A stretch of 64,000 nucleotides of DNA from Minisyncoccota bacterium. GTDB taxonomy: Bacteria > Patescibacteriota > Minisyncoccia > JBAYJV01. The translations under genes and the position numbers were made by a program. Shown piece by piece: positions 2,945 to 32,542 of this stretch. The stretch spans positions 56,121 through 120,120 of the forward strand of contig JBAYJV010000001.1 of NCBI GenBank assembly GCA_041664925.1. Reading direction: 5' to 3'. Below the pieces are notes generated by a model. It did not search any database, was not told the DNA's origin, and saw only the letters and a list, made by a program, of their open reading frames with translations. Positions within the stretch are counted from its first letter, which is position 1; each line of letters starts with the position of its first letter.

Positions 2945-5900
2945 TTATTGATTATTTTCTTTTTTTACTTGATCCTTTTTCGCGACCTTTTTGCCAACAA
3001 GCTCAACGGAAAAACCAAGACTTCTGAGCTCATTGAGTAAGACATTGAAGGATGCTGGAATGTTTGGGCTTTTAATTTCTTGTCCCCCGATAATAGACTC
3101 GTAAGCTGCTGCTCTGCCCAAAACATCATCTGATTTAATAGTAAGCATTTCTTGAAGAGTATATGCTGTCCCATAGCCTTCTAACGCCCATACTTCCATT
3201 TCACCAAATCTTTGGCCACCAAACTGAGATTTGCCTCCGAGAGGTTGTTGGGTAATCAAAGAATAAGGACCAATTGAACGCATATGAATCTTGTCGCTTA
3301 CAAGATGATTAAGTTTCATCATGTAAATTTGACCAACTGTACTTGGCTGACCAAATTCTTTACCTGTCCTTCCGTCGCGAAGTTGGAATTTACCGCTTGG
3401 TGAAAAACCTTGATCTGTTAAAGATTTTCTAATTTCTTCTTCAGTGATACCGGACAATGACGGAGTTAAAATTCTGCAATTCAAAGATTTTGCTACCATA
3501 CCCATATGGGTCTCAAGAATTTGTCCGATATTCATACGAGATGCAACTCCAAGTGGATTTAAAACTATATCAACTGGCGTACCGTCTTCTAAATACGGCA
3601 TATCCTCAACTGGCAAGATTTTGGAAATAACACCCTTGTTTCCATGACGTCCAGCTAATTTATCTCCAGCTTCAATCTTTTTAAATTGAGCGACTTCAAC
3701 TTGAATGCTTTTAATAACACCCGATGATAATTTATCTCCCTTATCCTGAGAGAAAACACGAACACCAATGACTCTTCCTTTTTTACCATGCGGAAGGGTT
3801 AGCGAACTATCTTTAACATCTCGGGCTTTATCGCCAAAGATTGATCTCAATAATCTTTCTTCGGCCGTTAAATCAGTTTCTCCTTTTGGAGAAATTTTAC
3901 CAACTAAGATATCTCCTTGTTTAACTTCAGCGCCAATTCGCACAATACCTTCCTCGTCAAGATCTTTAAGTCTTTCTTCTCCAACATTTGGAATGTCAGG
4001 CGTAGTAATTTCAGGACCAAGTCTTGTGTCACGGACATCTACCGTAAAATCTTCGATATGAATTGAACTGAAACGATCATCGCGAACAACCTTTTCTGAA
4101 ATAATTACCGCGTCTTCAAAATTGAATCCTTCCCATGACACAAAAGCAACCAAAAGATTTTGACCAAGCGCCAAAGTGTCTTTATCAATAGCTGGGCCTT
4201 CAGCGATCACTTGCCCTTTAGTAATTTTATCGCCTTTTCTTACAAGAGTTCTTTGATGAATGCAAGTATATTGGTTTGATCTTCTAAAGTTGGCGAGATG
4301 ATATTCTTTATTCTTTTTTGTTTTATCGCTTAAAATTACAACCTTGCTAGCATCAGCCTCAATTACCTTTCCCGATTCATCAGCTACCAAAATCATACCT
4401 GAATCAAGAGCAGTTCTTTTCTCCATCCCCGTTCCTACTAAAGGCGCCTGAGGATTAATACACGAAACAGCTTGGCGTTGCATATTTGAACCCATCAAAG
4501 CACGGTTTGCATCATCATGCTCCAAAAAAGGAATTAATGATGTCGCAACTGAAATTGATTGATTGGGAGCGACATCCACAAGATCAACTTTACCAACTTC
4601 AATTATTCCTGGTTCTGATTTTATGCGCGCCTCAATTTTTTTGTTTTTAAATTTACCTTCGACATCACGAGGTTCGCCCGCATGAGCAATAACATATTTT
4701 TCCTCCTCGTCCGCAGTCAGATAAACTACTTCGTCTATAACGCGTCCATTTTTAACACGATAATAAGGAGTGATTAAAAATCCATACTGGTTTAGCGAAG
4801 CATAAGTTGAAATATGATTGACTAGTCCGATATTGGGACCTTCTGGAGTTTGAATCGGACAAAGGCGTCCATAATGACTTGGATGAACATCACGAACTTC
4901 AAAACCAGCCCTTTCTTTCGTAAGACCACCTGGACCCATAGATGAAACACGACGCTTATGTTCAAGTTCCGCCAAGGGATTGACTTGATCCATAAACTGC
5001 GATAATCGAGACGAAATGAAAAATTCCCGCACAACGGTGGCCAATGGTCTAATATTGATAAGTTGGGCGGGTGTAAGTGTATATAAATCAAGGGTGCTCA
5101 TTCTATCTTTAATGATTCTAATCATACGAGCCAATCCAACCTGAACTCGGTTTTGCAAAAGTTCGCCAACGCATTTAACGCGGCGATTGCTCAAATGATC
5201 AATATCGTCAGGGCGCGCCTGAGGATTTTGATTGAGTTTAATAATTTCCTTAACAATCAAAACAATATCGTTGATTGAGAGAATTCTGTCGTCAAAAGTA
5301 ACTTTCTTTGTTTTGTCGGTCTTACTGCTTCCCGGCTTGTGCAATCCAAGTCTTTGATCAAGTTTCCAGCGACCAACTTCAGAAATATCATATCTTTCAA
5401 AACTGAACATCGCCTTCAAAAGACTTTTAGCATTATCAACTGTTGCCAATTCACCTGGACGAATTCTGCGATAAACTTCGATCAATCCATCGCCCTGATT
5501 ATTAGTAATATCTTTTTCTAAAGTCTGGCCAATATAATCAACTTCTCCGCCGAGTAAAACATCTCTAAAAACTTCTTTAACATTTGCCATTGAATCAATG
5601 AAGGGTTTTTCCCCTTCTCTAATACCAGAAAATGCTTTCAAAAAGGCAGTCACAGCAATCTTTCTTTTTCTGTCAACTTTAATGTAGAGAACGCCGTGGT
5701 TATCTGTTTCAATTTCAAGCCAAGCGCCGCGATTCGGAATGATCTTGGCTCCGAAATAATGACGGCCATTTTCATATCTTGAATTAAAAAACACGCCAGG
5801 TGATCTAGCGAGTTGAGAAACAATAACACGTTCAACGCCATTTAAAACAAAAGTTCCGCGATCGGTCATCAGCGGAAAATCTCCCATAAAAACATCTTGC

Positions 5901-6235
5901 TCTTTAATTTCGCCTGTTTTTTTGTTTTTTAAACTCAGTCTTACTCTAAGAGAAGCCTCGTGAGAAGCATTGTGCTCTTTGGCCTCAACTTCATCGTGTT
6001 TCGCTTTATCCAAATGATAATCTAGGAAAGAGAGTTCTAACTCCTTTCCTGAATAATCAGTAATTGGCGAAATTTCATCGAAAAGATCTCGAAGTCCCTT
6101 TTCAAAAAACCATTTATATGAATCTAACTGAATTTCAATCAGATTAGGAAGAGGGAGACTTTTTTTGGGAAAGTTTGAGAATTTTTTCTCTTCCATTGTT
6201 TGGGTGATTAACAAACAAAAGACCCTCGCCTTCAA
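2945..6235 (-). CDS. rpoB: DNA-directed RNA polymerase subunit beta
   Basis: 1096 aa ORF containing the conserved rpoB blocks [38 protein letters not shown] and NMQRQAV. Confidence 0.95.
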
Positions 6236-6423
6236 AGGCTAGAAAGGGTTGGTATTTTAAAGCTCGAAAAAATAATGAGTATCCACCATTTTTTGTAGAG
6301 GGTGGTGATTGGCTTCAGCAAAGCCAATCTGCTAGTATTTAAACTTGACGCTCGTCTAGGGTAAACGCAAAAAACTGGAGGTAGGCAAAACTTCCCCTCA
6401 ACGAGGTTTTATTATGTTATCTC

Positions 6424-6451
6424 ATTGTAGCGCGGATTTTTTGTTTGTCAA
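6424..6451 (-). promoter_or_regulatory. Candidate promoter for rpoB-rpoC, minus strand: TTGACA-N16-TACAAT, followed by an ~190 nt leader with hairpins
   Basis: Minus strand reads ttgacaaacaaaaaatccgcgctacaatga upstream of rpoB. The leader contains gattggcttcagcaaagccaatc and ccaccctctacaaaaaatggtgg hairpins. Confidence 0.45.
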
Positions 6452-6543
6452 TAGATATCTGTGGATAGTAAAATTATATTTATTCCTCAACGCTTCAAAT
6501 GGTGGAAATGAGGCGTTCAAGCAATCCTTCTTGAGCCGTTCAG

Positions 6544-7068
6544 TTATCCGGCCAACTCATAATAAACCGCATGCCCTGTCTTTCCTATTTGGCGAATTCT
6601 CCCTTGTTTTTCTAAAATATTCAAATAGCGAACAACTGTCGCATCCGACTTTCTTACAATCTTTCTAATTTCCTGATTAGTCAATCTTCTTTTTTCGGCC
6701 AATGCCGCCACAATTTTCTCAAGTTGTTTTTCTTTCCTCATGGCAATTTTTTGCTTGGCCTTTTCTAAAAGTTGGGCAATTATATTTTGTCCTGAATTAT
6801 TTTCTATCGGAGCAGGCGCATCAGTTGGCAAAATTGAATTCTCATTAATCACAGGTACTTCATTTATCTCCGGACTTTTTTCTTGGATATTTTCAGCTGA
6901 TGTTATTTCTGATTTCGGCTCAATCGCTACTTCCTGTGAATTTTCGGGTGAAGTCGGCATTGATTCTTGTTGAATTTCTGGCAAAATCTCCGAACTATTA
7001 TCTTTTATTGGCGCTTGATCTTGTATCTGGTTTTGCGCTTGATCTTGTCCTAAATTTTCTTCACTCAT
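6544..7068 (-). CDS. Winged-helix DNA-binding protein with an acidic, Q-rich N-terminal region. Candidate regulator.
   Basis: C-terminal ~70 aa KQLEKIVAALAEKRRLTNQEIRKIVRKSDATVVRYLNILEKQGRIRQIGKTGHAVYYELAG has a wHTH-like pattern. Its leader contains one copy of the GGAGGCTGAGCCTCC palindrome. Confidence 0.5.
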   Translation of the reverse strand: MSEENLGQDQAQNQIQDQAPIKDNSSEILPEIQQESMPTSPENSQEVAIEPKSEITSAENIQEKSPEINEVPVINENSILPTDAPAPIENNSGQNIIAQLLEKAKQKIAMRKEKQLEKIVAALAEKRRLTNQEIRKIVRKSDATVVRYLNILEKQGRIRQIGKTGHAVYYELAG

Positions 7069-7174
7069 AATAATAGATTTAATGGATTTAATGAATTAAT
7101 TAGTGGATAATGAATAATATAATGAACAATAATAATGATAAATGATAATCATTAATAATCAATAATCAATAGAA

Positions 7175-7203
7175 ATATGTGGGAGGCTGAGCCTCCCACA
7201 TAT
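7175..7203. promoter_or_regulatory. Solitary 29-bp perfect palindrome atatgtgggaggctgagcctcccacatat in the leader of the wHTH gene. Candidate operator.
   Basis: Perfect 14-bp arms. The same palindrome heads three larger modules elsewhere. It lies between a TTGAAA-N17-TATAAT promoter (about 7262-7290, minus) and the wHTH start. Confidence 0.5.
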
Positions 7204-7322
7204 TTCTGATGAAACAAAAAAACCGCTTTTTAGCGGTTTTCCCTTTTCAAGGGAACTCTCCATAATTATACCACACCTTACTTAATTTTTCAAGCTTTTT
7301 GAAAAAAATCCACAATTTTATT

Positions 7323-7353
7323 AATAAAAAGCAGAGAGTCCGTAGACTCTCTG
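7323..7353 (-). terminator. Intrinsic terminator for 7368..7754
   Basis: Hairpin cagagagtc-cgta-gactctctg followed by a T-run on the minus strand. Confidence 0.6.
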
Positions 7354-7367
7354 CAGATCTTGAATCC

Positions 7368-7754
7368 CTACTCGACAGGAATGAGACAAACGCCAAGACG
7401 ATATTTCTTCTTATCGTCTTCGCAAGACAGATCGACCGGAGCTAATCCACTAGTACTGTGCCAACCAAGTCTTCCGTCTCCACTCGAATCTCTGGCCGCA
7501 ACCAACGATTCGATGGTAACGATAGTTGCTTCAATCTTACACTCTGCGGTGTTTCTCTTGCGAGCCTTCATGAAACTGGGCTCCGCCTTTACGATTGCTT
7601 CTTCGCGTCCTTTCGCAAGAACATACGCCCTGACATCAATGGGAACTGTCCCGGGCGCTCTCTCGTCGCTGTCATAGTAAGAACCCATGAAATGAACGCA
7701 CCAGAACATCTCACCTTCGTCAGTTGGACGAGTTGTTGAGATAATCCCTGCCAT
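7368..7754 (-). CDS. Hypothetical small protein (128 aa), GC-rich island gene
   Basis: AGGAGG sits 10 nt before the ATG. It has a dedicated TTGATT-N17-TATAAT promoter and its own terminator. GC content is clearly above its surroundings. No recognisable family. Confidence 0.5.
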   Translation of the reverse strand: MAGIISTTRPTDEGEMFWCVHFMGSYYDSDERAPGTVPIDVRAYVLAKGREEAIVKAEPSFMKARKRNTAECKIEATIVTIESLVAARDSSGDGRLGWHSTSGLAPVDLSCEDDKKKYRLGVCLIPVE

Positions 7755-7804
7755 AGACTCTCATCCTCCTTTTAGTCAAGAACCGAAGATTCTCCAACAT
7801 TCTC

Positions 7805-7832
7805 ATTATACCACATATTAATAAAAAATCAA
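7805..7832 (-). promoter_or_regulatory. Near-consensus sigma70 promoter (TTGATT-N17-TATAAT) driving 7368..7754
   Basis: Minus strand reads ttgattttttattaatatgtggtataat, then a ~45 nt leader, then AAAAGGAGG. Confidence 0.6.
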
Positions 7833-7927
7833 GCTTTTTGGGTTTGAACATCAAAAAATCACGGTTAATGTGACTTCTTAAATGAAACTTGTTTAATAAA
7901 ACAAGATTTTGCAACGCTATCAAAGAC

Positions 7928-8095
7928 ATATGTGGGAGGCTCAGCCTCCCACATATTTCAAAATCCCAGCGCCAGATATGGAAAATCGGAGGCTAAGCCT
8001 CCGATTTGAGTCTCCGATTTGGTTAAAATATTCAACGCAAATGTTCAACACTCGGTGTCTAATATCTAGTCGTTATCAGGCATTTGTTGATAACA
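7928..8095. repeat. Double-palindrome module, copy 1: pal1 at 7928-7956, pal2 at 7983-8007, plus a conserved AT-rich tail
   Basis: atatgtgggaggctcagcctcccacatat and aaatcggaggctaagcctccgattt are both perfect. The module is almost identical to the copy at 10476-10620 and continues into the shared spacer and promoter at 7805-7925. Confidence 0.7.
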
Positions 8096-8118
8096 AGATT
8101 TTTCAATGCCATTAAGGT

Positions 8119-8430
8119 TTAGAAATAACCGCAAACAACTTTACCGTCAATTAATGACCAACAGTCTGATTCATTTTCATAATTAGCACAGTGTCCGACT
8201 ACGTTTTCCTTGCCCTCATTTTCCCACCCAAAATCACATCTTCCTTGGCATTGGTTTGAGTCCGTGCATTCTTTGCCGCCGTCATTCATTTTGTGATTAC
8301 AGGTCTGCCAAAGGGATGCCCATTTTCCACCCTCAAGTAAACAGAAAGCGTGTGGTATTTTCGGTATTAGTATTGCTCCAATAGTAATTAAAATTAATAA
8401 AGTTATAAAAAGAGTAATTTTCTTTTTCAT
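8119..8430 (-). CDS. Small secreted cysteine-rich protein (signal peptide plus 12 Cys)
   Basis: Hydrophobic N-terminus MKKKITLFITLLILITIGAILIP followed by Cys-rich CTDSNQCQGRCDFGWENEGKENVVGHCANYENESDC. Confidence 0.45.
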   Translation of the reverse strand: MKKKITLFITLLILITIGAILIPKIPHAFCLLEGGKWASLWQTCNHKMNDGGKECTDSNQCQGRCDFGWENEGKENVVGHCANYENESDCWSLIDGKVVCGYF

Positions 8431-8468
8431 ATTTTTTTATTATATATTAATTAAAAAATGTTATTAAA

Positions 8469-8996
8469 TTATTTGGATAATGACGGATAATTCCAATCCT
8501 CAATGAATTTAACTGGATAGGGAGGTAATAATTCAATCAAGGCCGTGCCGAATGTCGCCGAAATAATATTCGCAATCAAAATAGCAAGTATAAGTTTTTT
8601 GAAGCTAACTTTCTTTAATGCTATTTTTAAGAATATACTTTCGAAACAAACAATGATTAGTTCGGGGAAAAATAACATCCTCCAAATATAGCTTGCTGAT
8701 TTCGCAGATGCCTCATGATAACCCATGTTTGCAAGGAAAACATACAGAAGCGCTACCGATATTGCATTAGCTATGATAATAAAAAGAATTTCTTTCTTTT
8801 TTCTAAAACCAAATAACCAAAGAATTGACAACTCCAATAAAAGAGCAACTAATAAAGTTACTCCAAATTTTTCTATGTGAAATAAAGATGTTTGGGGTCC
8901 AATATATGAATTATCAAGAACGATGGGATTAGCTAAAACACAACTACATGACAATAAGCCAATAAATGAAAATAGCAAAACAAATACCTTTTTCAT
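8469..8996 (-). CDS. Multi-pass membrane protein, hypothetical
   Basis: Several hydrophobic segments and AT-rich host-like composition. Confidence 0.4.
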   Translation of the reverse strand: MKKVFVLLFSFIGLLSCSCVLANPIVLDNSYIGPQTSLFHIEKFGVTLLVALLLELSILWLFGFRKKKEILFIIIANAISVALLYVFLANMGYHEASAKSASYIWRMLFFPELIIVCFESIFLKIALKKVSFKKLILAILIANIISATFGTALIELLPPYPVKFIEDWNYPSLSK

Positions 8997-9259
8997 ATTT
9001 TTTTATTAGTTAGTCTTTTTGAGTTAATTCTATAGATTATCTGACTAGATAAGAAAAATAAAATAATACCAATAATTATAAGGTAAGATTTATCTAGTTT
9101 TGGAAAGATAATATAGATAATAAATGTAAGCAGGACCGAAGAAATAACTCCCGGCACCACTGGCGCGTACAATACGTCTGAAAAACTCGCTCCCCTATAT
9201 ATGTCCCAAGGATTAGTCTTAGTCCATGTTCGAAAAAATATATTCTTTTTTATTTTCAT
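8993..9259 (-). CDS. Small membrane protein, hypothetical
   Basis: Two hydrophobic helices. Overlaps the upstream gene by 4 nt. Confidence 0.3.
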   Translation of the reverse strand: MKIKKNIFFRTWTKTNPWDIYRGASFSDVLYAPVVPGVISSVLLTFIIYIIFPKLDKSYLIIIGIILFFLSSQIIYRINSKRLTNKKI

Positions 9260-9366
9260 ATTTTTTTATTTACTTTTGCCTTCATATTTTATCACAAAGT
9301 TTAAGTTTACGGATGTGCATAAATCCCTCCTTCGTCCCAGTAAACCGGGACTACGGACGGGCAAAG

Positions 9367-9401
9367 CAAAAAAAAGGGGTGCCACGCACCTGCGCGACAC
9401 C
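9367..9401 (-). terminator. Intrinsic terminator for 9423..9785
   Basis: 10-bp stem ggtgtcgcgc-aggt-gcgtggcacc followed by T8 on the minus strand. Confidence 0.65.
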
Positions 9402-9422
9402 CAGCTATTTACCTCTTTTCTC

Positions 9423-9785
9423 CTAGCAACTTCTGGTTCCAAATGCTCCCAGAGGAACCCGAGAAACATCGAACACTGGAACCCGTACTCTCTGACGGAC
9501 TCCCGACAACCTCGATCCTTCCTTGTCGTAGGCTTCTACCGGTTTCCACTTTCTCTCGAAAGCAACCGGCTCATGCGGAACTGGGATGATGGTGTCGGAC
9601 TGACCATGAAATGTAACGGTCAGCGGACATCCACATTCCAGACACTTGTCCGGAGGGAAATCAAAGCCCATGTGGGTCGGTACTTCGTGTCCGTTTTTGC
9701 AGAAGCGAACACTGTTTGTATCCCACGAGCCGAACCAATCGCCGATACGACTCGTTGTGACCATAGCTGTGGTAGCCATGACCAA
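9423..9785 (-). CDS. Hypothetical small protein (120 aa) with CxxxH...CxxC(x)C motifs, GC-rich island gene
   Basis: GGAGG sits 6 nt before the ATG. It has its own TTGATT-N17-TATAAT promoter and terminator. CKNGH...CLECGC suggests a zinc ribbon. Confidence 0.5.
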   Translation of the reverse strand: MVMATTAMVTTSRIGDWFGSWDTNSVRFCKNGHEVPTHMGFDFPPDKCLECGCPLTVTFHGQSDTIIPVPHEPVAFERKWKPVEAYDKEGSRLSGVRQRVRVPVFDVSRVPLGAFGTRSC

Positions 9786-9827
9786 CCTCCTTTTACTGCT
9801 TTTTGAGTCTCTGACGGTACTACTTCT

Positions 9828-9856
9828 ATTATACCATATTCAAATACAAAAATCAA
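9828..9856 (-). promoter_or_regulatory. Near-consensus sigma70 promoter driving 9423..9785
   Basis: Minus strand reads ttgatttttgtatttgaatatggtataat. Confidence 0.6.
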
Positions 9857-9941
9857 GCTTTTTGGGGGTAAAATACACAAAAAAAGGCCGTCTTCGCACA
9901 CTTGTACGAGTACGGCCTCTACGCTACGCTTCAAGACACGG

Positions 9942-10279
9942 TTACGAAATCTTGCGCAGAACCTCTTCGCTTGCAGAATGAGTAGCTTCGATGAACCAAC
10001 TAGACACGACTCCCAAATTAGACATTTCTGTTTCGAGAAGGCCTTCAAATACCACTAGATACGGAGTGAACGCTGGGCCAAGATTATAAGTCGTCACGGC
10101 AATTCTCAAGATATCGGCCTTTGAATCTCCACCCGTCTTCACGAGAATATACTCTTCAACGAAACCCCTGTAAAACAGGGCTAAAATTAGCTCGTTAAGA
10201 GCAATGTGAGGCAAAAGTTCGCGAACTTGTACAGGCCCACCCTCTTTCGTCCTATCTCTGTAGAAACTCACTTTTACCA
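9942..10279 (-). CDS. Hypothetical small protein (~112 aa from MVKVSFYRDR), GC-rich island gene
   Basis: AAGGAGG sits 7 nt before the ATG at 10279. The longer ORF start at 10343 has no SD. A terminator hairpin ggccgtcttcgcacacttgtacgagtacggcc plus T7 lies at ~9886-9925. A TTGATT-N17-TATAAT promoter lies at 10351-10379. Confidence 0.5.
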
Positions 10280-10350
10280 TTGCGCAACCTCCTTGGTTTT
10301 GAGATTGAATACTTCTATAATCAAAAAACCGCTTTTTGATCATCTACGTG

Positions 10351-10379
10351 GATTATATCATATTAAGATACAAAAATCA
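10351..10379 (-). promoter_or_regulatory. Near-consensus sigma70 promoter driving 9942..10279
   Basis: Minus strand reads ttgatttttgtatcttaatatgatataat. Confidence 0.6.
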
Positions 10380-10620
10380 AGCTTTTTGGGTTTGAACATC
10401 AAAAAATCACGATTAATGTGACTTCTTAAATGAAACTTGTTTAATAAAACAAGATTTTGCAACGCTATCAAAGACATATGTGGGAGGCTCAGCCTCCCAC
10501 ATATTTCAAAATCTCATCGCCAGATATGGAAAATCAGAGGTTTAGCCTCCGATTTGATGAAAATATTTAACGCAAATATTCAACACTCGGTGTCTAACGT
10601 CTAGGCATTATCAAGGATTA
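10380..10620. repeat. Double-palindrome module, copy 2: pal1 at 10476-10504, pal2 at 10532-10555 (2 mismatches)
   Basis: About 95% identical to 7836-8095 over ~250 bp, including the spacer hairpin cttgttttattaaacaag. Confidence 0.7.
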
Positions 10621-11117
10621 GGTACAAAAAATCCCACTTTTGTTTTTAATTCTTCTGCCAAATTTTCAGCGATCAAGTCTTTGCTCTTTAAATAATTTAC
10701 TTTATTAATGAAATTATTAATCCACACATTCTTTTCTTGATCGCTTTGCGCATCGCGAATTTTGTAAAGATAATAAAGCAGGTTTCTTTCAATAAAAATC
10801 TTTGATTGCAAAATTTCCGATACATTCCCTTCGCCTATTCCTTCTTCTTCATTAGTTTTATTAAAACTAGCAGTCCAATTAAATGGTAGTGTGCCAACAT
10901 TTCTTACTTTCAAATATTGGGATTTTACTTCATATGGTTGCATATTGGAAAATCCTAAAGAAGCGCTGGTTGTTGAATCTTCGGTGCTTAAATCCAAAGT
11001 TCCTGCCTCAAGATTACTTTCCGCTGAAATCTCGGCATCTGAATAATATGAAACCGTATAGCCAGCACATCCCAAAGAAGCAATTAGTAAAATTATAATG
11101 ATTAAATCTCTTTTCAT
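10611..11117 (-). CDS. Secreted hypothetical protein (signal peptide)
   Basis: N-terminal MKRDLIIIILLIASLGCAGYT. No confident family, though it loosely resembles TasA/camelysin-like secreted proteins. Confidence 0.45.
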   Translation of the reverse strand: MKRDLIIIILLIASLGCAGYTVSYYSDAEISAESNLEAGTLDLSTEDSTTSASLGFSNMQPYEVKSQYLKVRNVGTLPFNWTASFNKTNEEEGIGEGNVSEILQSKIFIERNLLYYLYKIRDAQSDQEKNVWINNFINKVNYLKSKDLIAENLAEELKTKVGFFVPNP

Positions 11118-11129
11118 AATTATTGTGAT

Positions 11130-12944
11130 TTATTGGCTCGCTTCAAAAACAATATCATACCAACTTTTTGCTCCTTGATATTTATTGTCATTCGTTTCAA
11201 GCCATGTTTCAATTTTCACACACGCGCCAACACTACTATCCAACCTCCCCATATTTACCATTCCCAAATCTTTGATGAATCCCGTCTTTACCATTTCAAA
11301 AGATAAATTCTGGTCCTCGCAATTCTCCGTTTGCTCTATTGTTCCGTCGAGATAATGCCCTTTAACATCTTCTATCAATTCATCAATCGTCACTTCGCCC
11401 TCTCTTTTAATTTTATTGTCCGAATCGTCGTCAAATTCAATTTCATAAGTATGCTCTTCTCCTTCAGAAATTCCGTCAGAAAAATCTTCAAGCTCCGATG
11501 TCGAATCCGATGCGTAATAGGTTGCAAAATCAAAACTATCATCATTGTTTAGTCCTGTGATTTTTATTTGGTATTGGCCATCTTGAGGATCAGGAATATG
11601 GACAATTTTTGGTCCGCTTGGATCGGAAGGCTCTTCAAATTCGGCAAAGGGAATTTCCGATGTTTCACTGGAAATAATTTTTCCATCAGGAGCAATAATC
11701 TCAACTTTCGCATTTTCTGTGAAAAGAAAATCAAGACTATCTTCAAATTCCCTAGGCGCTGGCGCGATATCAACATCGGACAATTCAATCGGCGGACCAG
11801 AGATCGGAGTAGGAAATAGTTCAGAAATTGGCGGAGTCGGGTGTCTTAACCAATAGATGACTTCTTCAATCGCTCGATGAGGTAGAGCAGTGTGTTTGGT
11901 TGTTTCAAAAAAACCCATTCTTTGATTACCAACCTCAGAAAATGCCTCTGGTCCCGGATTAGGATCAAAGTCAGGATCTGTTTCTGGCGCTGGCATTCCT
12001 ATAATATCTGAAAGTAAAACCGATTTTTTCAAAACCCGATTATCTCCTTCCAAATCATTTTTTGCCGGCGGAAAAGGGCAAGGATAGCCATCCTGCCAAG
12101 TTGTCGCTCCAGGCATTATTGGTTCAACTAAAATATTGCCAACTGTTGACTCGCCATCGCCTCCTAAATTACTAAAATAAACTCTCGATTGAAGATTCAT
12201 GGTTCCCATCCAATTATTCAAATCTTCCAAAAAAAGGTTTTGGCCATCTGGATTATCTGGCATAAATGGCGTTGAACCCCCTTGTAAATCCACCTCTCTT
12301 AAATATTCGTAGGTCGGCATTAATTCCCCCAGCGAAGGCACATATTCGTGAATCAATTCATAATTTGATTCGGTCTGTGGATAAACCATTTGGCGCAAAT
12401 ACCAGAGATAGGAATCTAAGACATATTTATAAGATTTTCCCCAATTTTTTGGAATTACTCCACCCTCCCAAGGACTATAAGCGTCAGAAGAGCCATTGTT
12501 GGGAACACCTAGCATGACCAATCGCTCAACATCATTTTCAAATTGATCTGATTGAATATAATAACGCGACACCAATCCGCCCATTGAATGCGCCACAATA
12601 TCCACTTTTTCTGCCCCTGTGAGCATTTTCACTTCATCGATTTTTGCCTTTAAAAATTGAAAGGCGGAATCTCTGTTTGATTTCCGCCAATCATAAAAAG
12701 CGACATATACATCAAACCCTTCATTTTCCAGAGTTTGGATTAAGGAATCATAAACATGAACTCCCGGGAAAAATCCCCATGAATCGCTAAAAATATTATT
12801 AACCATCACATGCCAGTTCCACGAAGCGTTAATTCCCGGCACCAAAATAACCGGATTATGATTTTGGCTGCCGGCAAATGATCCAAAACCAAAATTTCCC
12901 AGAATTAAAAAAATAACTATAAGTATAGTTTTTATTCTTTTCAT
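11130..12944 (-). CDS. Secreted alpha/beta-hydrolase (lipase/esterase-like) with an acidic C-terminal extension
   Basis: Signal peptide, a GxSxG nucleophile elbow DIVAHSMGGLVSRYY, and a D/E-rich C-terminal region. Confidence 0.65.
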   Translation of the reverse strand: MKRIKTILIVIFLILGNFGFGSFAGSQNHNPVILVPGINASWNWHVMVNNIFSDSWGFFPGVHVYDSLIQTLENEGFDVYVAFYDWRKSNRDSAFQFLKAKIDEVKMLTGAEKVDIVAHSMGGLVSRYYIQSDQFENDVERLVMLGVPNNGSSDAYSPWEGGVIPKNWGKSYKYVLDSYLWYLRQMVYPQTESNYELIHEYVPSLGELMPTYEYLREVDLQGGSTPFMPDNPDGQNLFLEDLNNWMGTMNLQSRVYFSNLGGDGESTVGNILVEPIMPGATTWQDGYPCPFPPAKNDLEGDNRVLKKSVLLSDIIGMPAPETDPDFDPNPGPEAFSEVGNQRMGFFETTKHTALPHRAIEEVIYWLRHPTPPISELFPTPISGPPIELSDVDIAPAPREFEDSLDFLFTENAKVEIIAPDGKIISSETSEIPFAEFEEPSDPSGPKIVHIPDPQDGQYQIKITGLNNDDSFDFATYYASDSTSELEDFSDGISEGEEHTYEIEFDDDSDNKIKREGEVTIDELIEDVKGHYLDGTIEQTENCEDQNLSFEMVKTGFIKDLGMVNMGRLDSSVGACVKIETWLETNDNKYQGAKSWYDIVFEASQ

Positions 12945-12951
12945 TAAGTAC

Positions 12952-13401
12952 TTAAAAATATAACACTCCTATTTGCCCTAATCCCCATGCAACAAAATAC
13001 GCCCAAATTGCAAGTAAAATAACTCCTGTAATTATTGTAAGTAAAAGACTAATAAGAAATCTTTTTAAATTAAATTTTTTATATTTAATCCACGCAATTA
13101 TAAGCGGAGAAATGGTGAATATTAAATATAACCACAAAGTTTGATATAGCGTACCTTTTTCTAGCGATTCCATTAACCATCCTGAATTTCGGACATTATT
13201 GTATAAATGTCTATCATACCAATTACCCAATATCCAAATTCCCACAAATATTCCGATACTTAAAAGATAACTCAAAAAAATCCAGCGCCATTTTAAAAGT
13301 TTCGCTTTCCAGATAATAAAAAAAGGGCTTAAAATCAGCCCGATGGTTATAATCACATAGCCCCAAGTAATTAATTTTTCCGAAGCACTTCCTGTTGGCA
13401 T
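12952..13401 (-). CDS. Integral membrane protein (4 TM), hypothetical
   Basis: Four hydrophobic helices. Copy 3 of the double-palindrome module sits directly upstream. Confidence 0.45.
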   Translation of the reverse strand: MPTGSASEKLITWGYVIITIGLILSPFFIIWKAKLLKWRWIFLSYLLSIGIFVGIWILGNWYDRHLYNNVRNSGWLMESLEKGTLYQTLWLYLIFTISPLIIAWIKYKKFNLKRFLISLLLTIITGVILLAIWAYFVAWGLGQIGVLYF

Positions 13402-13486
13402 AATTTCACTAGTCTTTATTAATGCTATATTTTAATACAACATTATACCCAATTTTCCTCATCTTCTCCATTCCCCTTATCCACAG

Positions 13487-13625
13487 ACATATGTGGGAGG
13501 CTGAGCCTCCCACATATTTCAAAATCTCAGCGCCAGTTATAGTAAATCTGAGGCTAAGCCTCCGATTTAGTTCGATTTGATAGAAAATGTTAAACACTCG
13601 GTGTTGAACATTTTGTCTTGAAACA
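13487..13625. repeat. Double-palindrome module, copy 3: pal1 at 13489-13517, pal2 at 13545-13568
   Basis: atatgtgggaggctgagcctcccacatat is perfect. aaatctgaggctaagcctccgattt has 1 mismatch. The module is adjacent to a TGGGTATAAT -10-like element upstream of 12952..13401. Confidence 0.65.
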
Positions 13626-13639
13626 TTGTTAAACAAAAA

Positions 13640-14486
13640 AAAGACGGCCCCAGAGATTCTTTTCCCTGGGACCGCAACTCTCTCATTTTAGCTCCGTAGT
13701 AAGACCGACATTTCGCCGTCGGTCGCGCCCCGTCTAGACATTCGTCTAGGTGACGAGGTACCGACCCTGTAACTTCCGGGGTAACTGTTTGATCGTCAGC
13801 ATACCCGACTCCATCCCCCCAATCGCTTCGCGTCCATGACGCGACGCCTTCCTTCGCAATAGTTAGCGAACCTGTAGACCGCAGACCTCGGTAGAGCGAA
13901 AGCCCTATTGCCAAACTTCGCGTCTCCGTCCCGAGTTCACCGGCGAAATTCTCTAGTGTGAACGCGGAATATGATCTTCTAGTCTCTTCCTGGCTTTTTT
14001 TGCCATTGCCAGTTCCTGGTAACCGTTTTCTATGTACCTACGTGAATCCGCTCATGCCTCCCCTTCCATTATAGTAGGGATTTATCAGGCGATAGGGTTA
14101 CCTATTAAGGTAACGCTTCGCCCTCGCACCATTCTCTGTCCGACTTGTCGCTAATTTCTATGGATGGTAAGGTTCTATGAGCCCGGTGGACTCTCCTCCT
14201 TTCAAGTTTAGGGTTCCGATTTGCTGCTCTCCCGAGCTAGCGCCATTTAGACTGTACACGCATACCGAGATGTTGGTCGCATATCGCGTACCAAGCGTTG
14301 GTTATGCAGTGGGTTGTTAAGTACAACCAGACTCGGAAACCCCAACTCACTTTGTTGCACACTCTCTACGTCAACTGAAGAACAAGACTCGTGATGCTAC
14401 AGATGATCGCAAGGCACGACATGATGAAAGCTTCGCGTGGCCACTTAACCATAACGCTCAACCTCCTCTTTCATTCTCTATTATCC
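13640..14486 (-). ncRNA. Candidate large structured ncRNA of ~850 nt. It begins with a 28-codon hydrophobic micro-ORF and ends at an intrinsic terminator.
   Basis: A perfect TTGACA-N17-TATAAT promoter lies at 14487-14515 (minus). About 52% GC against an AT-rich background. No ORF of 60 aa or more in any frame across ~800 nt. Many local hairpins, for example ctagacgaatgtctag, gaccgacggcgaaatgtcggtc and cgcgtcatggacgcg. A terminator hairpin plus T8 lies at ~13633-13672. Near the 5' end, an SD precedes the ORF MVKWPREAFIMSCLAIICSITSLVLQLT. Confidence 0.35.
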
Positions 14487-14515
14487 ATTATAGCATACCC
14501 CATTCCAAATGTCAA
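14487..14515 (-). promoter_or_regulatory. Consensus sigma70 promoter TTGACA-N17-TATAAT for the 13.6-14.5 kb unit
   Basis: Minus strand reads ttgacatttggaatggggtatgctataatgg. Confidence 0.6.
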
Positions 14516-14631
14516 TAGTTTTTACCTATTTTTACGGAAATTCGCCATTTTTTAAAATATCACGCCAGTTAATTGCGACTAAAAAAAATGAGCGGGTTTG
14601 CTGTTTTGCAAATCCGCTCTTCACTATTTCT

Positions 14632-15267
14632 TCAGTTATTAACTAAGTCCTTCATTCTTCGAATAAGATCTTCCTTGAAATCAAAAGCAGCAAACTTACA
14701 GGTTTCCAGTAATTGCTTAAGGGTTTTGGCCTTTTCGCCCATCTTTACAATAGCTAATCCGGCAAGACTTCCGCGGGGATTATTCTCACGAATCTTGGCC
14801 CATTTTTCAAAGGACAAATCGAGTCCGCGAATTTTGGCAAGAATTGTTTCTCTTCTTTGAAGATTACTGTCATCTTCACGATAAACTTCAAGATATTCGT
14901 CAATCCTATTTGCCAATTTTACCATTTCTTCATCAGCAATAAGTCCTATGTGTCCAAGACCAGGATCAGCTTCTTTGGCTCTTCTCCAGTCACTAAAGGT
15001 TCCTAACCTTTTCATCTCTACAAGAACCACTTCTGCTTTACTAAGCGGTCCGCGAAGATAAGTCTGTAACCAATTATCAAAAGTTCCTAGGCGCCGCATT
15101 CTTGAGACAATTTTAATACGAATTTCTCCGGAAGCATGTCCATACGCTTCCAATAAATCTTGGAAATTCAACGCATCAAACTCTTCTGGGGTTAAGTTGT
15201 CCCATTTAAGAACAACTGCCAAACCAATTCCCGCTGTCTTGACTAACTCGTCAAACTCTATTGCCAT
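14632..15267 (-). CDS. Hypothetical protein (211 aa) with an internal RLGTF(D/S)(N/D)W repeat
   Basis: Long ORF. Terminator hairpin gagcgg...ccgctc plus T-run downstream. No family recognised. Confidence 0.45.
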   Translation of the reverse strand: MAIEFDELVKTAGIGLAVVLKWDNLTPEEFDALNFQDLLEAYGHASGEIRIKIVSRMRRLGTFDNWLQTYLRGPLSKAEVVLVEMKRLGTFSDWRRAKEADPGLGHIGLIADEEMVKLANRIDEYLEVYREDDSNLQRRETILAKIRGLDLSFEKWAKIRENNPRGSLAGLAIVKMGEKAKTLKQLLETCKFAAFDFKEDLIRRMKDLVNN

Positions 15268-15284
15268 GTTTCCTCCTTGTCTTT

Positions 15285-15698
15285 TTACTTTTTCGGACTG
15301 ACAAAGATATAAAGTTCTGCTGTTCCAGAACCATAGCCAATATGATATTCAATTGGCTCAATGGATTCTATGATATAATTCTTGCTAATCTCTTTTAGTC
15401 CTTCTCTTAGAGCATCCCCAAGACCTATTCCCTCTGAGCTGCCGCTATTACCTATGATACGATTTAATTCTAGAGCAACAATTCTTGCTAGATTTGGCTG
15501 AATCCATTCAATTGAGTAGCTTGGTTTTTCTACTTCAATAACGGGCGTGGAAGAATTCTTGCTCCTACCACATCCTGATAGAATCACACATACCGCCAAA
15601 ACTAAACAAATAACTCCAACGACTGGCCAACCAAATGCTTTTTTCTTTGTCATATTTCCTCCCTCTATGTTTTTTGAGAACTGCCCACATCCTATCAC
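15285..15698 (-). CDS. Putative lipoprotein
   Basis: Signal peptide ending ILSGC (lipobox-like). Confidence 0.45.
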   Translation of the reverse strand: MIGCGQFSKNIEGGNMTKKKAFGWPVVGVICLVLAVCVILSGCGRSKNSSTPVIEVEKPSYSIEWIQPNLARIVALELNRIIGNSGSSEGIGLGDALREGLKEISKNYIIESIEPIEYHIGYGSGTAELYIFVSPKK

Positions 15699-15735
15699 GA
15701 TGAAAATAAAATGTCAATACTTAGTTGTAAAGTCA

Positions 15736-15981
15736 TTAAGCATTGAGTCCTTCGGCTGTTGCTTTGGCAATATTACAGGAAATCACGCTGGCATCCGGAT
15801 CGCATTCCACAAGAAATTCTGGCATATCTTTGACTTTCGCTTGCTTTAAAATTCCATCTATTGCTGGCAAAAGATTTTCTAAAAGGGTTTTATCTGACGC
15901 AATTTCTTTTTTTATGGTTTCATTTCCCGTACCTAAAACAAGTTCTGCTTTCTCTTTTTTTATTTTTATTAAAAATTTCAT
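15736..15981 (-). CDS. Small protein with weak resemblance to the TsaB/YeaZ N-terminal region. Low confidence.
   Basis: The strings LVLGTGNE and SVISCNIAKATAEGL are reminiscent of TsaB motifs. The start was taken at MKFLIKI. Confidence 0.25.
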   Translation of the reverse strand: MKFLIKIKKEKAELVLGTGNETIKKEIASDKTLLENLLPAIDGILKQAKVKDMPEFLVECDPDASVISCNIAKATAEGLNA

Positions 15982-16106
15982 AGTAAGATGATCACACATT
16001 GTCCCCAGTTAATCCATCTATTTTAGGTTGGTTTTGTCAAAAATTCAATACTGCCAAGCTTATTTCGTTTTGGGAAAAATAGATGATAGACTGAAAGAAA
16101 ACAAAT

Positions 16107-17612
16107 ATGCCCGACAAAAAGAAACCCATCAAAAAAATAGAGGAAAAAGAATCAGTCTCCAAGGAAGAAGTCGAACCAAAGACAGAAAAGCCAGAGAGAT
16201 TTAATTTTGATAGACTGGCTGTTAAGATTCCCGAGGATAGAATACCGCCTCAATCTATCGAAGCTGAGCAATCAGTTTTGGGATCGGTGATGATTGATAA
16301 AAATGCGATTTTCAGAGTCGTTGATACTTTGCGCCCTGAATCTTTTTATCGTCGCAGTCATCAGCTTATTTATATAACTATCCTTGAACTTTTTTCAAGA
16401 CAGGAATCGATTGATCTTTTGAGCGTCTCTGCAAAGCTTGAAGAAAAAAAACAGCTTGAAGAAGTCGGTGGCAGAACTTATCTGGCAAATCTGGTAAACG
16501 CCGTGCCGACATCAAGCCATATCGCCAGCTACGCTAAGATTGTTTCCAAAAAGAAAATCTTGCGCGATTTAATCGACGCTTCCTATTATCTATCCCAGCT
16601 CGGCTACAACGAAGATGCAGACATTGATCAGGTTTTGGATGCTGCCGAGAAAAAAGTTTTTTCCATTGCTCAAAAATCATTCACCCACGAATTTCTATCT
16701 TTGAAAGATCCGCTCGCTGAAGCCTTCAATCGTTTTGATCAGCTCCATCAAAGAGCCGGCACAAAGCTTCGCGGCATCGCTACCGGCTATCCCGATTTGG
16801 ATAATAAATATCTTTCCGGTTTTCAAAAAACCGATTTGATAATTTTAGCGTCTCGTCCCCGTATCGGAAAAACTTCTCTTGCTCTAGATATTGCCCGCCA
16901 TGTCGCTCTCAGGGAAAAAAAAGCCGTCGGTATTTTCAGCCTTGAAATGTCAACTGATCAATTGGTCGATCGCCTTGTCGCGCAGGAAGGAAAACTTGAT
17001 TTATGGAAATTGAGAAGCGGCAATTTGGCTGATCATGATTTTGATGTTATTCAGCAAGTTTTGGATGACTTGTCGCGAGCGCCGATTTACATTGATGACG
17101 GCATGTCGAGTAATGTTTTACAAATGAGAGCAATGTCGCGACGATTGCAAGCGCAGACCGATTTGGGTTTGATTATTATAGATTACTTACAATTGATGGA
17201 ACCATCAGCTAAAACGGAAAGTCGTGTTCAAGAAATTTCTCAGATTTCTCGTGCCCTCAAGGGTTTGGCGCGTGAACTCAATGTCCCAGTCCTAGCGCTT
17301 TCCCAGCTTTCCCGCGCTGTTGAGCACAGATCTTACGCCATTCCCAAACTCTCTGATCTTCGCGAATCCGGATCAATTGAACAAGATGCGGATGTTGTCA
17401 TGTTTATTTATAGGGAAGAAAAAGCGCCGCCCGAAATTGGCATTAAATTGGAAGGCCAGGTTATTGTCGCCAAGAACAGAAATGGTCCGACCGGTCATGC
17501 CGATGTTTATTTCAGAGAAAAATCAGCAACTTACGAATCGGTTTCAAAACGCTTTGACGGCGCAGAAGAAATAGCATTCCCCGACGACCAAGACATCATG
17601 CCACCGATGTAA
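16107..17612 (+). CDS. dnaB: Replicative DNA helicase DnaB
   Basis: N-terminal IPPQSIEAEQSVLGSVMID, a Walker A SRPRIGKTSLALDIARHVA, and the RecA-like C-terminal domain. Confidence 0.9.
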   Translation: MPDKKKPIKKIEEKESVSKEEVEPKTEKPERFNFDRLAVKIPEDRIPPQSIEAEQSVLGSVMIDKNAIFRVVDTLRPESFYRRSHQLIYITILELFSRQESIDLLSVSAKLEEKKQLEEVGGRTYLANLVNAVPTSSHIASYAKIVSKKKILRDLIDASYYLSQLGYNEDADIDQVLDAAEKKVFSIAQKSFTHEFLSLKDPLAEAFNRFDQLHQRAGTKLRGIATGYPDLDNKYLSGFQKTDLIILASRPRIGKTSLALDIARHVALREKKAVGIFSLEMSTDQLVDRLVAQEGKLDLWKLRSGNLADHDFDVIQQVLDDLSRAPIYIDDGMSSNVLQMRAMSRRLQAQTDLGLIIIDYLQLMEPSAKTESRVQEISQISRALKGLARELNVPVLALSQLSRAVEHRSYAIPKLSDLRESGSIEQDADVVMFIYREEKAPPEIGIKLEGQVIVAKNRNGPTGHADVYFREKSATYESVSKRFDGAEEIAFPDDQDIMPPM

Positions 17613-30243: not shown

Positions 30244-31152
30244 TTACGCCTTATGAGTTCTGTGTTTCCAATTTTCCCAGGTCACCAACAGGGCGCTTGC
30301 GATAAAGATTGAAGAATAAGTACCGAAGAAAATTCCAAAAATTAGCGCCAGAACAAAATCTTTTATTGTTTCACCGCCAAAAAACATAATCGCAACCAAA
30401 GCAAGTTCTGTTAGCAGTGAAGTATTGATTGACCTAATTAATGTCTGAGAAATGCTTCTATTAACAATCTCTTCAAATGTTTCTTTGGCGCTATGACCCA
30501 AGTTTTCTCTGATTCTATCAAAAACAACAATCGTGTCATGAACCGAATAACCAAAAATCGTCATCAAGGCAGCTACGAAAGGCAAGCCAACTTCAATATT
30601 TGAAAATCTACCCAAAATTGAAAAAATACCAGTAACAATCAGAAGATCATGAATCAAAGCAATAACTGCTGTCGTGCCGTATTTCCAAGATGCCACCGGC
30701 CAAGAAACTCTGCGAAAAGCCCAGGCAATATAACTAATGATACCGACAGCGCTCAGAAAAACTGCCCATAGAGTTTTACTCTTTAGTTCTCTTCCAACAA
30801 CCGGCCCAATCGAATCATATCTTTTTTCTTCAAGAGTTTGTTTTTTTGAGGTTGCTAGCGTTCTTAAATCTGTCAAAACTTTTTGATGAGTTGCTTCGTC
30901 AGATTGCTGGAAGCGTAACATAAAACTGTCATCTCCAACTGGCTGAATAATGAGACTTAATAATTTCTGACCTTCTAGTGCGTCTTTAATTTCTTGAACT
31001 GAAACTTCAGTCGTATTTGAAAATTTTACTTCAAGAAGACTACCACCAGTAAAATCAATACCGAACTTGAGCCCCCACATTGAAAGACTAACAATACTAA
31101 TGATTGAAAGAATTCCAGAAAAGATAAAGAATATTTTTCTATATTTAATCAT
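30244..31152 (-). CDS. secF: Protein translocase subunit SecF
   Basis: LKFGIDFTGGSLLEV and a SecF-type multi-TM C-terminal region. It overlaps secD by 8 nt. Confidence 0.9.
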   Translation of the reverse strand: MIKYRKIFFIFSGILSIISIVSLSMWGLKFGIDFTGGSLLEVKFSNTTEVSVQEIKDALEGQKLLSLIIQPVGDDSFMLRFQQSDEATHQKVLTDLRTLATSKKQTLEEKRYDSIGPVVGRELKSKTLWAVFLSAVGIISYIAWAFRRVSWPVASWKYGTTAVIALIHDLLIVTGIFSILGRFSNIEVGLPFVAALMTIFGYSVHDTIVVFDRIRENLGHSAKETFEEIVNRSISQTLIRSINTSLLTELALVAIMFFGGETIKDFVLALIFGIFFGTYSSIFIASALLVTWENWKHRTHKA

Positions 31153-32542
31153 GTTTTTTCACTGACCATAACCAATGAATATTTTTAAGACGCGTCTCTG
31201 CGACCAAGATTAAAAGTTGACGCGTAAAGGTAATCGCCGTAAACATTGAAGCAAGCACGCCAATACTGAAAGTCAGCGCAAATCCTCTAACAAAACTCAC
31301 TCCCACCCAATAGAGAATCGCTGCTGTAATCAAGCTTGAAATGTTGCTATCGCGAATCGAATTCCATGCTCTGTGAAAACCTTCGGTGATTGATCGGTCC
31401 AAGTCTTTGCCCAACTCTCGCTCCTCTTTCATTCTCGCAAAAATCAAAACATTTGCATCCACTGCCATGCCTAAGGTTAGAATAAATCCAGCAATACCAG
31501 GAAGAGTCAATGTGACCGGCACTAATTTAAACACTGCCAAAAGCAATGCCGCATAGACTGCCAGAGCGATAGTTGCCAGAACTCCGGGCAATCGATAGTA
31601 AAGAATCATGAATAATGCTATCAAAATGAATCCCAAAATTCCTGCTCTTAAACTTTTATCAAGAGAAATTTTTCCAAGACTTGCTCCAACTGTTTGTTGG
31701 CTAATGATTTTTATAGGAACAGGCAGGGCACCGGCATTCAGACTTCTTACCAATTCTTGCGCTTCGGCAACAGTAAATTTTCCGGTAATTCTGGCTTCTC
31801 CTGAAGGAATTTCTTCATTAACTGTCGGCACACTAATTGGGACGCCATCGAGATAAATCGCTACCCTCTTGCCAACATTTCTCTTTGTAATTTGGGCAAA
31901 CAATTTTGCGCCTTCGTCGTTGAGTTGGAATAAAATTTCTGGTTGTCCGGTTGTTTGATCGAATCTAACCTCAGAGTTTTTTAACATTCTTCCATCAAGA
32001 CCAGTTTGTATAAAATAAGGATCTTCGGTCAATCTTTGTCCTTCTTTCTGCGCCTCTAAAATCTTATCTCGTTCTGCTACCGGCCTTTCTTCTTTAAATT
32101 CCAAATATGGCGTTTGACCAATCATCTGGATTGCCTGAGAGATATCATTAACACCAGCCAATTCAACAATCAAACGATGATTGCCTCCCGACATATCAAC
32201 TTGCACCAAGGGCTCAGCGACACCGAAAAGGTTAACGCGGCGTTCAATAACATCACGAACACCAACCAAAGCCTGATCTTGATCGGCAGCCGCAATATTT
32301 TTCATGTCGGCTTCATAAACTAAGTGAGCTCCACCCTGCAGATCTAGTCCTAATTTAAATGGTTTATTATAAAAATGGCGAAATTCACGACCAAAAACTC
32401 CATTGGGCAATGCCTTATTTAGATCGTCGGCTGTTTTATCCCAAGCATTGGGAAAATCGAAATTAGCTGCTAAAAAAGTGATAATAAAAATTGCAATAAC
32501 GGCCAGACGAACCTTTGTCCTTGTAGATAACGACTTAAACAT
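31145..32542 (-). CDS. secD: Protein translocase subunit SecD
   Basis: LGLDLQGGAHLVYEAD periplasmic domain and SecD TM bundle motifs. Confidence 0.9.
   Translation of the reverse strand: MFKSLSTRTKVRLAVIAIFIITFLAANFDFPNAWDKTADDLNKALPNGVFGREFRHFYNKPFKLGLDLQGGAHLVYEADMKNIAAADQDQALVGVRDVIERRVNLFGVAEPLVQVDMSGGNHRLIVELAGVNDISQAIQMIGQTPYLEFKEERPVAERDKILEAQKEGQRLTEDPYFIQTGLDGRMLKNSEVRFDQTTGQPEILFQLNDEGAKLFAQITKRNVGKRVAIYLDGVPISVPTVNEEIPSGEARITGKFTVAEAQELVRSLNAGALPVPIKIISQQTVGASLGKISLDKSLRAGILGFILIALFMILYYRLPGVLATIALAVYAALLLAVFKLVPVTLTLPGIAGFILTLGMAVDANVLIFARMKEERELGKDLDRSITEGFHRAWNSIRDSNISSLITAAILYWVGVSFVRGFALTFSIGVLASMFTAITFTRQLLILVAETRLKNIHWLWSVKKHD

Follow-up and report, generated by a model that had tools for sequence, protein, structure and literature searches.

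OLE, GOLLD and ROOL are classes of large bacterial noncoding RNA. Their members number from dozens to thousands, covary strongly and share conserved cores. RNAIII of Staphylococcus aureus, a dual-function regulatory RNA, encodes the 26-aa delta-haemolysin, and its 5′ and 3′ parts are conserved between species with a divergent middle. The genomes of Patescibacteria, the Candidate Phyla Radiation (CPR), are about 1 Mb or less in size and hold little noncoding DNA, and to our knowledge almost nothing is known about CPR regulatory RNAs beyond the universal RNAs and group I introns. High GC is an expected sign of structured RNA in an AT-rich genome, which is the logic of searches in GC-rich intergenic regions (GC-IGRs) (PMC6429828, PMC11109978). 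Here, we analyzed a promoter-to-terminator unit on the minus strand of a 64,000-nt stretch of DNA from a Minisyncoccota bacterium (contig JBAYJV010000001.1, positions 56,121 to 120,120), referred to below as the window. An earlier note, made from the letters of this stretch, had proposed the unit as a candidate large structured RNA with a type I toxin-like micro-open reading frame (micro-ORF) at its 5′ end. GOLLD and ROOL often lie near tRNAs or prophage genes, whereas this unit does not.

The anatomy of the unit, its lack of coding capacity, its position outside the curated RNA families and the presence of one positional homologue are directly supported. Judging from the sequences, we give a probability of roughly 0.5 to the reading that the unit is a free-standing, strongly promoted, lineage-specific noncoding RNA gene. 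On this reading, its 5′ end and its 3′ hairpin domain are conserved and its core evolves fast.

A promoter-to-terminator unit without a protein gene

The sigma-70 promoter that the earlier note had read at the head of the unit matches the consensus in full and, in addition, carries the TG of an extended −10 element (Table 1). It was the best and only perfect site in a scan from 12.5 to 15.5 kb, and a second TTGACA-N14-TGnTATAAT was not found elsewhere in the 64-kb window. From the predicted transcription start, the transcript would reach an intrinsic terminator, the hairpin and T8 of the earlier note, with its stem at 13675-13644 and a 3′ tail reading CTTTTTTTTG. The length of the unit given previously, about 850 nt, holds at about 845 nt, while its GC content of about 52% comes down to 50.5%. 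The four hairpins quoted at that time are all in the sequence.

Table 1. Features in and next to the unit (positions counted from the first letter of the window)
Feature	Positions	Strand	Remark
Sigma-70 promoter TTGACA-N17-TATAAT, extended −10 TG	14487..14515	minus	12/12 match
Predicted noncoding transcript, ~845 nt	13634..14480	minus	no coding signal, no Rfam family
AGGAGG (14467-14462), 9-nt spacer and ATG micro-ORF MVKWPREAFIMSCLAIICSITSLVLQLT (14452-14366)	14366..14467	minus	may be translated; not conserved
Short block common with the L087 counterpart, GAACC(C)UAAA-N3-GAAAGGAG, then CAUAGAACCU	14170..14216	minus	10-mer and 8-mer, alone not statistically compelling
Best-conserved body element, hairpin GGGAUGGAG-NN-GGGUA (AUCAAA loop) UACCC	13779..13817	minus	best local alignment
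Spurious 115-aa TTG ORF	13567..13914	minus	overlaps the RNA over its last 280 nt (3′ third), runs through the terminator
Intrinsic terminator GCGGUCCCAGGG-AAAAGA-AUCUCUGGGGCCGU, then C U8	13634..13675	minus	13 pairs, 8 GC
Repetitive extragenic palindromic (REP)-like intergenic repeat, two palindromes	13482..13617	minus	just 3′ of the terminator, outside the transcript

The composition of the predicted transcript (A+G 57%) sets it apart from the genome, which has 38% GC. In 200-nt windows, GC ranges from 48 to 57% across 13600-14300 versus 23 to 41% in the flanks. Other intergenic gaps in these genomes have 25 to 38% GC, and the tRNA cluster of the window has 52%. ORF-free gaps of at least 250 nt number only about 12 in the 64 kb, the contigs being otherwise densely coding, so that a retained noncoding unit of 0.85 kb is notable. 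Together, promoter, terminator and GC island are clearly non-random.

The unit has no real protein gene. Each frame of both strands holds 8 to 17 stops, and all three kinds of stop codon occur in every frame; stop-codon recoding therefore rescues no ORF and was ruled out. Six-frame translations gave no Pfam family at E ≤ 1. With a codon-usage log-ratio trained on 24 long genes of the window, these genes and eight small neighbours (most of them without a family match) scored +0.13 to +0.37 per codon, and the internal ORFs of the unit were all negative (−0.03 to −0.18). The earlier statement that no ORF of 60 aa or more is present was wrong, as a TTG-initiated ORF of 115 aa lies over the 3′ part of the unit and is annotated as a gene in two assemblies. 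This ORF fails every coding test: its log-ratio is −0.03, and a search among 5.8 billion clustered proteins returned only itself.

For the longest open frame (156 codons), an exhaustive HMMER search against 1.84 billion representative proteins returned the frame itself and P0123, and no true relative. We judged the P0123 match spurious because repeat copies inflate its score: the E value of 4e-9 sums four copies of one weak match (about 13 bits each, 29% identity). P0123 itself, a predicted protein of 381 aa, consists of 68-aa units (204 nt) repeated perfectly in tandem; almost certainly it is no real gene but an ORF that runs over repeated DNA of an unrelated organism. Since neither a six-frame Pfam match nor a true relative of the 115-aa ORF or the 156-codon frame was found, we rejected a decayed gene as the origin of the unit.

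Known RNA families were searched with Rfam 15 (4227 models) on the window locus, the exact unit and the homologous unit in the related contig L087 described below, using both the gathering score and a cutoff of E ≤ 10. At the gathering thresholds no family, OLE, GOLLD, ROOL and HEARO included, matched the window or the L087 unit, and at E ≤ 10 the matches were terminator-like or due to chance (for example, a greA leader at 21.7 bits against a threshold of 60). The earlier note had failed to match RNase P, tmRNA, SRP, 6S or group I/II introns and had been unable to assign the unit to OLE, GOLLD or ROOL; both judgments agree with our results, as the Rfam check that it had suggested was negative, no covariance model of these classes matched, and ARAGORN was negative as well.

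In Patescibacteria, group I introns often hide tRNA genes from annotation, and introns at tRNA position 35/36 evade standard tools (PMC13011429). For this reason ARAGORN was rerun with introns. On both homologues no tRNA or tmRNA was found by default, with -m, or with introns of 0-1200 nt at a relaxed score, and neither T-arm nor acceptor halves are visible in the window copy. A tRNA or tmRNA carrying a group I intron was rejected on these ARAGORN results, along with the lack of an Rfam group I intron match. The window copy also contains GGAGGAGAGUCC-ACC-GGGCUCAUAG, a string we take to resemble the conserved region I (CR-I)/P4 segment of RNase P RNA, GAGGAAAGUCCGGGCUCCAUAG in the M1 RNA of Escherichia coli. 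We dismissed this likeness because the string has no counterpart in L087 and no covariance model matched (RF00010 and RF00011, E ≤ 10); in addition, no complementary CR-V was seen by inspection.

A counterpart in the same insertion slot

Relatives of the unit were sought at loci anchored on dnaB. Among the loci from 80 GTDB Patescibacteria, with at most 60% DnaB identity, there was no nhmmer match and no comparable GC-rich, ORF-free island. A DnaB protein search gave a small clade at 77-96% identity, and contigs of seven of its members were compared, together with one outlier at 63% (P0014). Among these closer relatives, a counterpart was present only in the P0004 lineage (L087-L090 and L239, all identical), whose DnaB is 85% identical to that of the window.

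In L087 (9631-9066), the unit lies directly behind the orthologue of an 87-aa gene of the window (47% aa identity), in the same slot and orientation. Its promoter, TTGACA-17-TATACT with TG, matches at 11 of 12 positions; the unit is 537 nt long with about 44% GC in a locus of 36% GC, and its 3′ end is a long hairpin followed by A-U8. The earlier note had named an intact gene in relatives as the sign of a decayed pseudogene; the L087 unit has no ORF over 52 aa, and tblastn of the neighbouring window proteins against it gave no match. Among the indirect signs of constraint, the best is the GC excess that persists in both lineages.

The promoter and the first transcribed bases are 74.5% identical to L087 over 51 nt (E=2e-6 in that search space). 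The bodies are not significantly alignable, and past the promoter homology rests on synteny and short blocks. The shared hairpin lies about 175 nt from the 3′ end in the window and about 160 nt in L087. RNAalifold on the two 3′ domains returned a single stem that is shared and invariant, together with a few "compensatory" pairs; at n=2 these pairs carry no weight. A DNA pattern based on the hairpin gave 19 hits in the JGI metagenomes, of which only the L087 contig was real; scans of IMG/VR (120 chance hits, then 1) gave nothing credible, and blastn of the unit against a phage collection gave no match.

Two further observations concern these sequences. In L089, the source annotation places a 711-nt "gene" with a 26-residue product at 6074-6784, spanning the L087-type unit; it is probably a prediction artefact over noncoding sequence. 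The conserved 3′ block of the window RNA (13798-13813, TGGAGTCGGGTATGCT) is a 14/16 direct repeat of its own promoter spacer (14492-14507, TGGAATGGGGTATGCT), and the 3′ block of L087 (GGATGGAGATGGGTAGC) likewise resembles its own RNA 5′ end (GGAGGATGTGGGTAGC), with marginal significance.

Folding was scored as minimum free energy (MFE) z-scores against dinucleotide shuffles. The full window transcript gave z=−3.3, much of it from the terminator, and the body of the L087 unit gave −4.0 in sense and +0.7 in antisense, versus +0.9 to −1.3 for coding controls. In sliding 200-nt windows of the window copy, little stands out besides the 3′ hairpins and the downstream REP-like palindromes. Further, the unit contains no internal repeat array, so a TIGR- or CRISPR-like array was rejected. 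A CsrA-type or anti-Shine-Dalgarno (anti-SD) sponge was likewise rejected, as the window copy shows no enrichment of GGA or GGAG; in L087, GGA is only mildly enriched. A search for base-pairing targets of the RNA within the window gave nothing above chance (longest complementarity 13 nt, E=0.66). The first bases of the RNA recur as a perfect 16-nt match (GAGAATGAAAGAGGAG) at 31421-31436 (minus) inside a 465-aa ORF (31145-32542; blastn-short E=0.011), probably a purine-rich coincidence.

The unit lies within a stretch of about 9.5 kb from rpoB (2945-6235) to the 87-aa gene (15736-15999), which is divergent from dnaB (16107-17612). This stretch holds orphan genes, including those for lipase-like secreted, camelysin-like and membrane proteins, lipoproteins and a helix-turn-helix (HTH) protein. 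The rpoB-dnaB island showed no recognisable mobile-element or defence genes, and PADLOC on nine island neighbours was negative except for weak HTH-type matches on a 174-aa regulator. The flanking 211-aa protein, which NCBI lists as hypothetical and assigns to a Candidatus Paceibacterota metagenome-assembled genome, is an orphan, the protein search returning only itself. The locus is present in three assemblies, with the unit 100% identical in all.

The interval between rpoB and the 87-aa gene is an insertion hotspot, spanning 6235-15736 in the window, 8474-9637 in L087, where it holds the RNA unit only, 540-884 in L104 and 7033-7309 in L246. Seven relatives lack the unit in this slot, which in them holds other sequence or nothing (L091/L092, L093-L096, L101/L102, L103, L104, L105 and L246); the rpoB leader comes directly behind the small gene in L104 and L246. 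From its absence in these seven, the unit is either dispensable or located elsewhere in them, and it is an accessory feature of the hotspot.

Several side observations were made in and around this slot. Right behind the 87-aa gene of the window, at 15717-15680 (minus), a promoter TTGACATTT...TGATAGGAT drives a 137-aa lipoprotein-like gene and is followed by GGATGTGGGCAG...CATAGAGGGA, closely like the first bases of the L087 RNA, GGATGTGGGTAGC-GTAGAGGGA (L087 9631-9575). This likeness hints at duplication or shuffling of a promoter and 5′ end within the island. The REP-like repeat behind the terminator, about 130 nt long with palindromes CGGAGGCTTAGCCTCCG and AAATATGTGGGAGGCTSAGCCTCCCACATATGTCT, recurs behind several island genes, with further copies at 7921-8071 and 10469-10593 and a partial one at 7165-7208, and short-read assemblies break inside it. 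A palindrome also stands at the corresponding position in L087, 3′ of the RNA terminator (about 8975-9010); its flanks are kept (AAAT.TGTG...CACA.AT) and its stem centre is altered compensatorily (GAGCAC/GTGCCC). Contigs L097-L100, whose DnaB (P0012) is 83% identical to that of the window, are gene-dense, one-strand and of 30% GC, with neighbours such as Cpn10, several methyltransferases, a Tad2-like protein, intein/LAGLIDADG glycosyltransferases, radical SAM and EPSP-synthase-like proteins. Their appearance suggests a phage or mobile element of this CPR clade which took over the host helicase or has it in common with the host.

Weighing the readings of the unit

If the unit is a noncoding RNA gene, transcription would start at about 14480 from the extended −10 promoter and stop about 845 nt on at the intrinsic terminator near 13635. 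The RNA itself would be the product, and an abundant one. Its GC content, 12-15 points above that of the genome, would be maintained by selection for base-paired structure. Such an RNA may act in trans through the conserved 3′ domain (the GGGAUGGAG/GGGUA-AUCAAA-UACCC hairpin) and a length-variable, fast-evolving middle. Speculating further, a role linked to the hypervariable island, in regulation or in sequestering a protein partner, would be most likely. At distinctly lower odds, and only tentatively, the unit could be the founding member of a new genus-restricted class of RNAs in Paceibacteria. RNAs of this class would be large (0.5-0.9 kb), structured and fast-evolving, with very high expression, and would combine a 3′ hairpin domain that is conserved with a core that varies. 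An embedded membrane peptide might give the unit a dual function, and a link to the hypervariable surface-protein island might exist.

A number of results weigh against a noncoding RNA gene and are gathered here, next to the absence of the unit from the slot of the seven relatives. Part of the promoter similarity to L087 is the common TTGACA-N14-TGcTAtaaT consensus of the clade. Between the two bodies, the best local alignment is equalled by 28 of 300 shuffles (p~0.09), and global alignments have z-scores of 0 to 1.4, so that there is no significant alignment. There are only two distinct sequences, the other contigs being 100% identical copies, and with two sequences covariation carries no weight. 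Without its terminator, the window body has z=−2.2 in sense and −3.2 in antisense, a modest signal that is not strand-specific, and its 200-nt windows (z −0.5 to −2.6, mostly −0.5 to −1.4) overlap the coding controls. Of the large structured RNA proposed earlier, the free-standing noncoding unit from promoter to terminator stands, while z-scores of this size do not establish the large structure.

One rival reading, which we consider unlikely, is that the unit is non-functional island debris: in a hotspot of rapid turnover, a promoter and a terminator would have survived on either side of what is left of a decayed orphan gene or of foreign DNA. The slot is indeed hypervariable, from about 0.3 kb (L104, L246) through about 1.2 kb (L087) to about 9.5 kb (window), and the essentially unalignable bodies, the absence of the unit from the slot of seven relatives and the modest z-scores of the window copy all fit debris. 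However, a near-consensus promoter and a strong terminator are kept in both lineages, no protein similarity was found in any frame, and the folding signal of L087 is strong and sense-specific. Moreover, unconstrained sequence would be expected to drift to about 25-35% GC, whereas the bodies remain at 44-51%.

About equally unlikely is a small-protein mRNA, or an RNA of dual function, in which the 28-aa peptide, a short ORF in the 3′ block, or both would be the product and the rest a long structured untranslated region (UTR). The 28-codon ORF of the earlier note is present as described, a single hydrophobic helix behind a GGAGG; this GGAGG (14466-14462) starts 21 nt past the −10 element, not the 30 nt given before. 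Its AGGAGG, 9-nt spacer and ATG are in its favour, and by our rough estimate this arrangement of ribosome-binding site and ATG has a chance probability of a few percent; the length of 28 codons by itself is unremarkable. In both species, the most conserved block of the body also holds an in-frame ATG ORF, MESGMLTIKQLP... and MEMGSIKAVSLP... (ME.G..IK..LP), with an SD-like GGAG or AGGAGG 6-7 nt ahead of its internal ATG, and both indels between the window and L087 blocks are multiples of 3. In L087, a leaderless ORF (MEDVGS...) is possible at the predicted +1.

On the other side, the hydrophobic 5′ peptide is without a homologue in L087, where the unit holds no comparable hydrophobic ORF, and the peptide pairs of window and L087 score no better than unrelated ORF pairs. 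The conserved stretches (ATCAAA, TTACCC, GGGATGGAG) are identical in nucleotides with zero synonymous changes, and constraint at the RNA level therefore fits better than constraint at the peptide level. Codon usage of the micro-ORFs is non-genic (log-ratio −0.11 for the 28-aa ORF, which has no Pfam or NCBIfam match), and the micro-ORFs account for less than 10% of the transcript and leave the GC enrichment unexplained. The type I toxin proposed by the earlier note is unsupported: besides the lack of conservation in L087, the non-genic codon usage and the lack of a family match, no promoter-like site is present on the plus strand between 13340 and 14530, so no antisense promoter faces the micro-ORF.

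Last, a highly divergent or insertion-laden form of a known RNA (RNase P, tmRNA, 6S, a group I intron in a tRNA or tmRNA gene, OLE, GOLLD or ROOL) is very improbable, for although Patescibacteria do hide tRNA genes behind group I introns (PMC13011429), no Rfam 15 model matched either homologue at E ≤ 10 beyond terminator-like noise, ARAGORN with introns up to 1.2 kb was negative, and the RNase P-like string is missing in L087.

Comparison with known RNA systems

If the unit is a noncoding RNA gene, it would be among the few candidate large noncoding RNAs of the CPR, behind the strongest promoter in 64 kb. Because the island around it turns over fast and encodes orphan secreted and membrane proteins, the unit could bear on the regulation of surface functions in episymbionts, which possibly use such a surface-protein island in host interaction. 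With two known copies it is a lead and not a discovery, a worthwhile but thinly supported candidate.

Like the candidates from GC-IGR surveys, the unit is a long intergenic region with GC far above the intergenic average of its genome (PMC6429828, PMC8632094, PMC11109978). Those surveys accept a motif only on comparative evidence of conserved structure, a standard above what our two sequences provide. With type I toxin-antitoxin systems (hok/sok, tisB/istR, fst) it shares a short ORF for a single hydrophobic helix, a good ribosome-binding site and a 5′ hairpin predicted to sequester the SD sequence of the 28-aa ORF. Unlike in those systems, there is no facing antisense promoter, the ORF is missing in the homologous unit, no toxin family matches, and the transcript is 3-4 times longer than typical toxin mRNAs.

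OLE, GOLLD and ROOL resemble the unit in being free-standing RNAs without an ORF, in the size range (0.5-0.9 kb), in their many local hairpins and in being GC-rich against an AT-rich host. They differ in that their covariance models do not match the unit, which has two members with barely alignable bodies.

The comparison with RNAIII of S. aureus extends to the arrangement of the gene, although there is no sequence relationship, no agr-like quorum-sensing genes lie nearby and the homologous unit has no conserved counterpart of the peptide ORF. The C-rich anti-SD loops of RNAIII are also missing here, the count of CUCC in the window RNA being zero. Both RNAs, however, exceed 0.5 kb and have multiple hairpins, a strong promoter of their own and an ORF for a short hydrophobic peptide near the 5′ end, and both adjoin genes for secreted and surface proteins. 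By analogy, conserved ends around a variable middle would be a layout like that of regulatory RNAs such as staphylococcal RNAIII.

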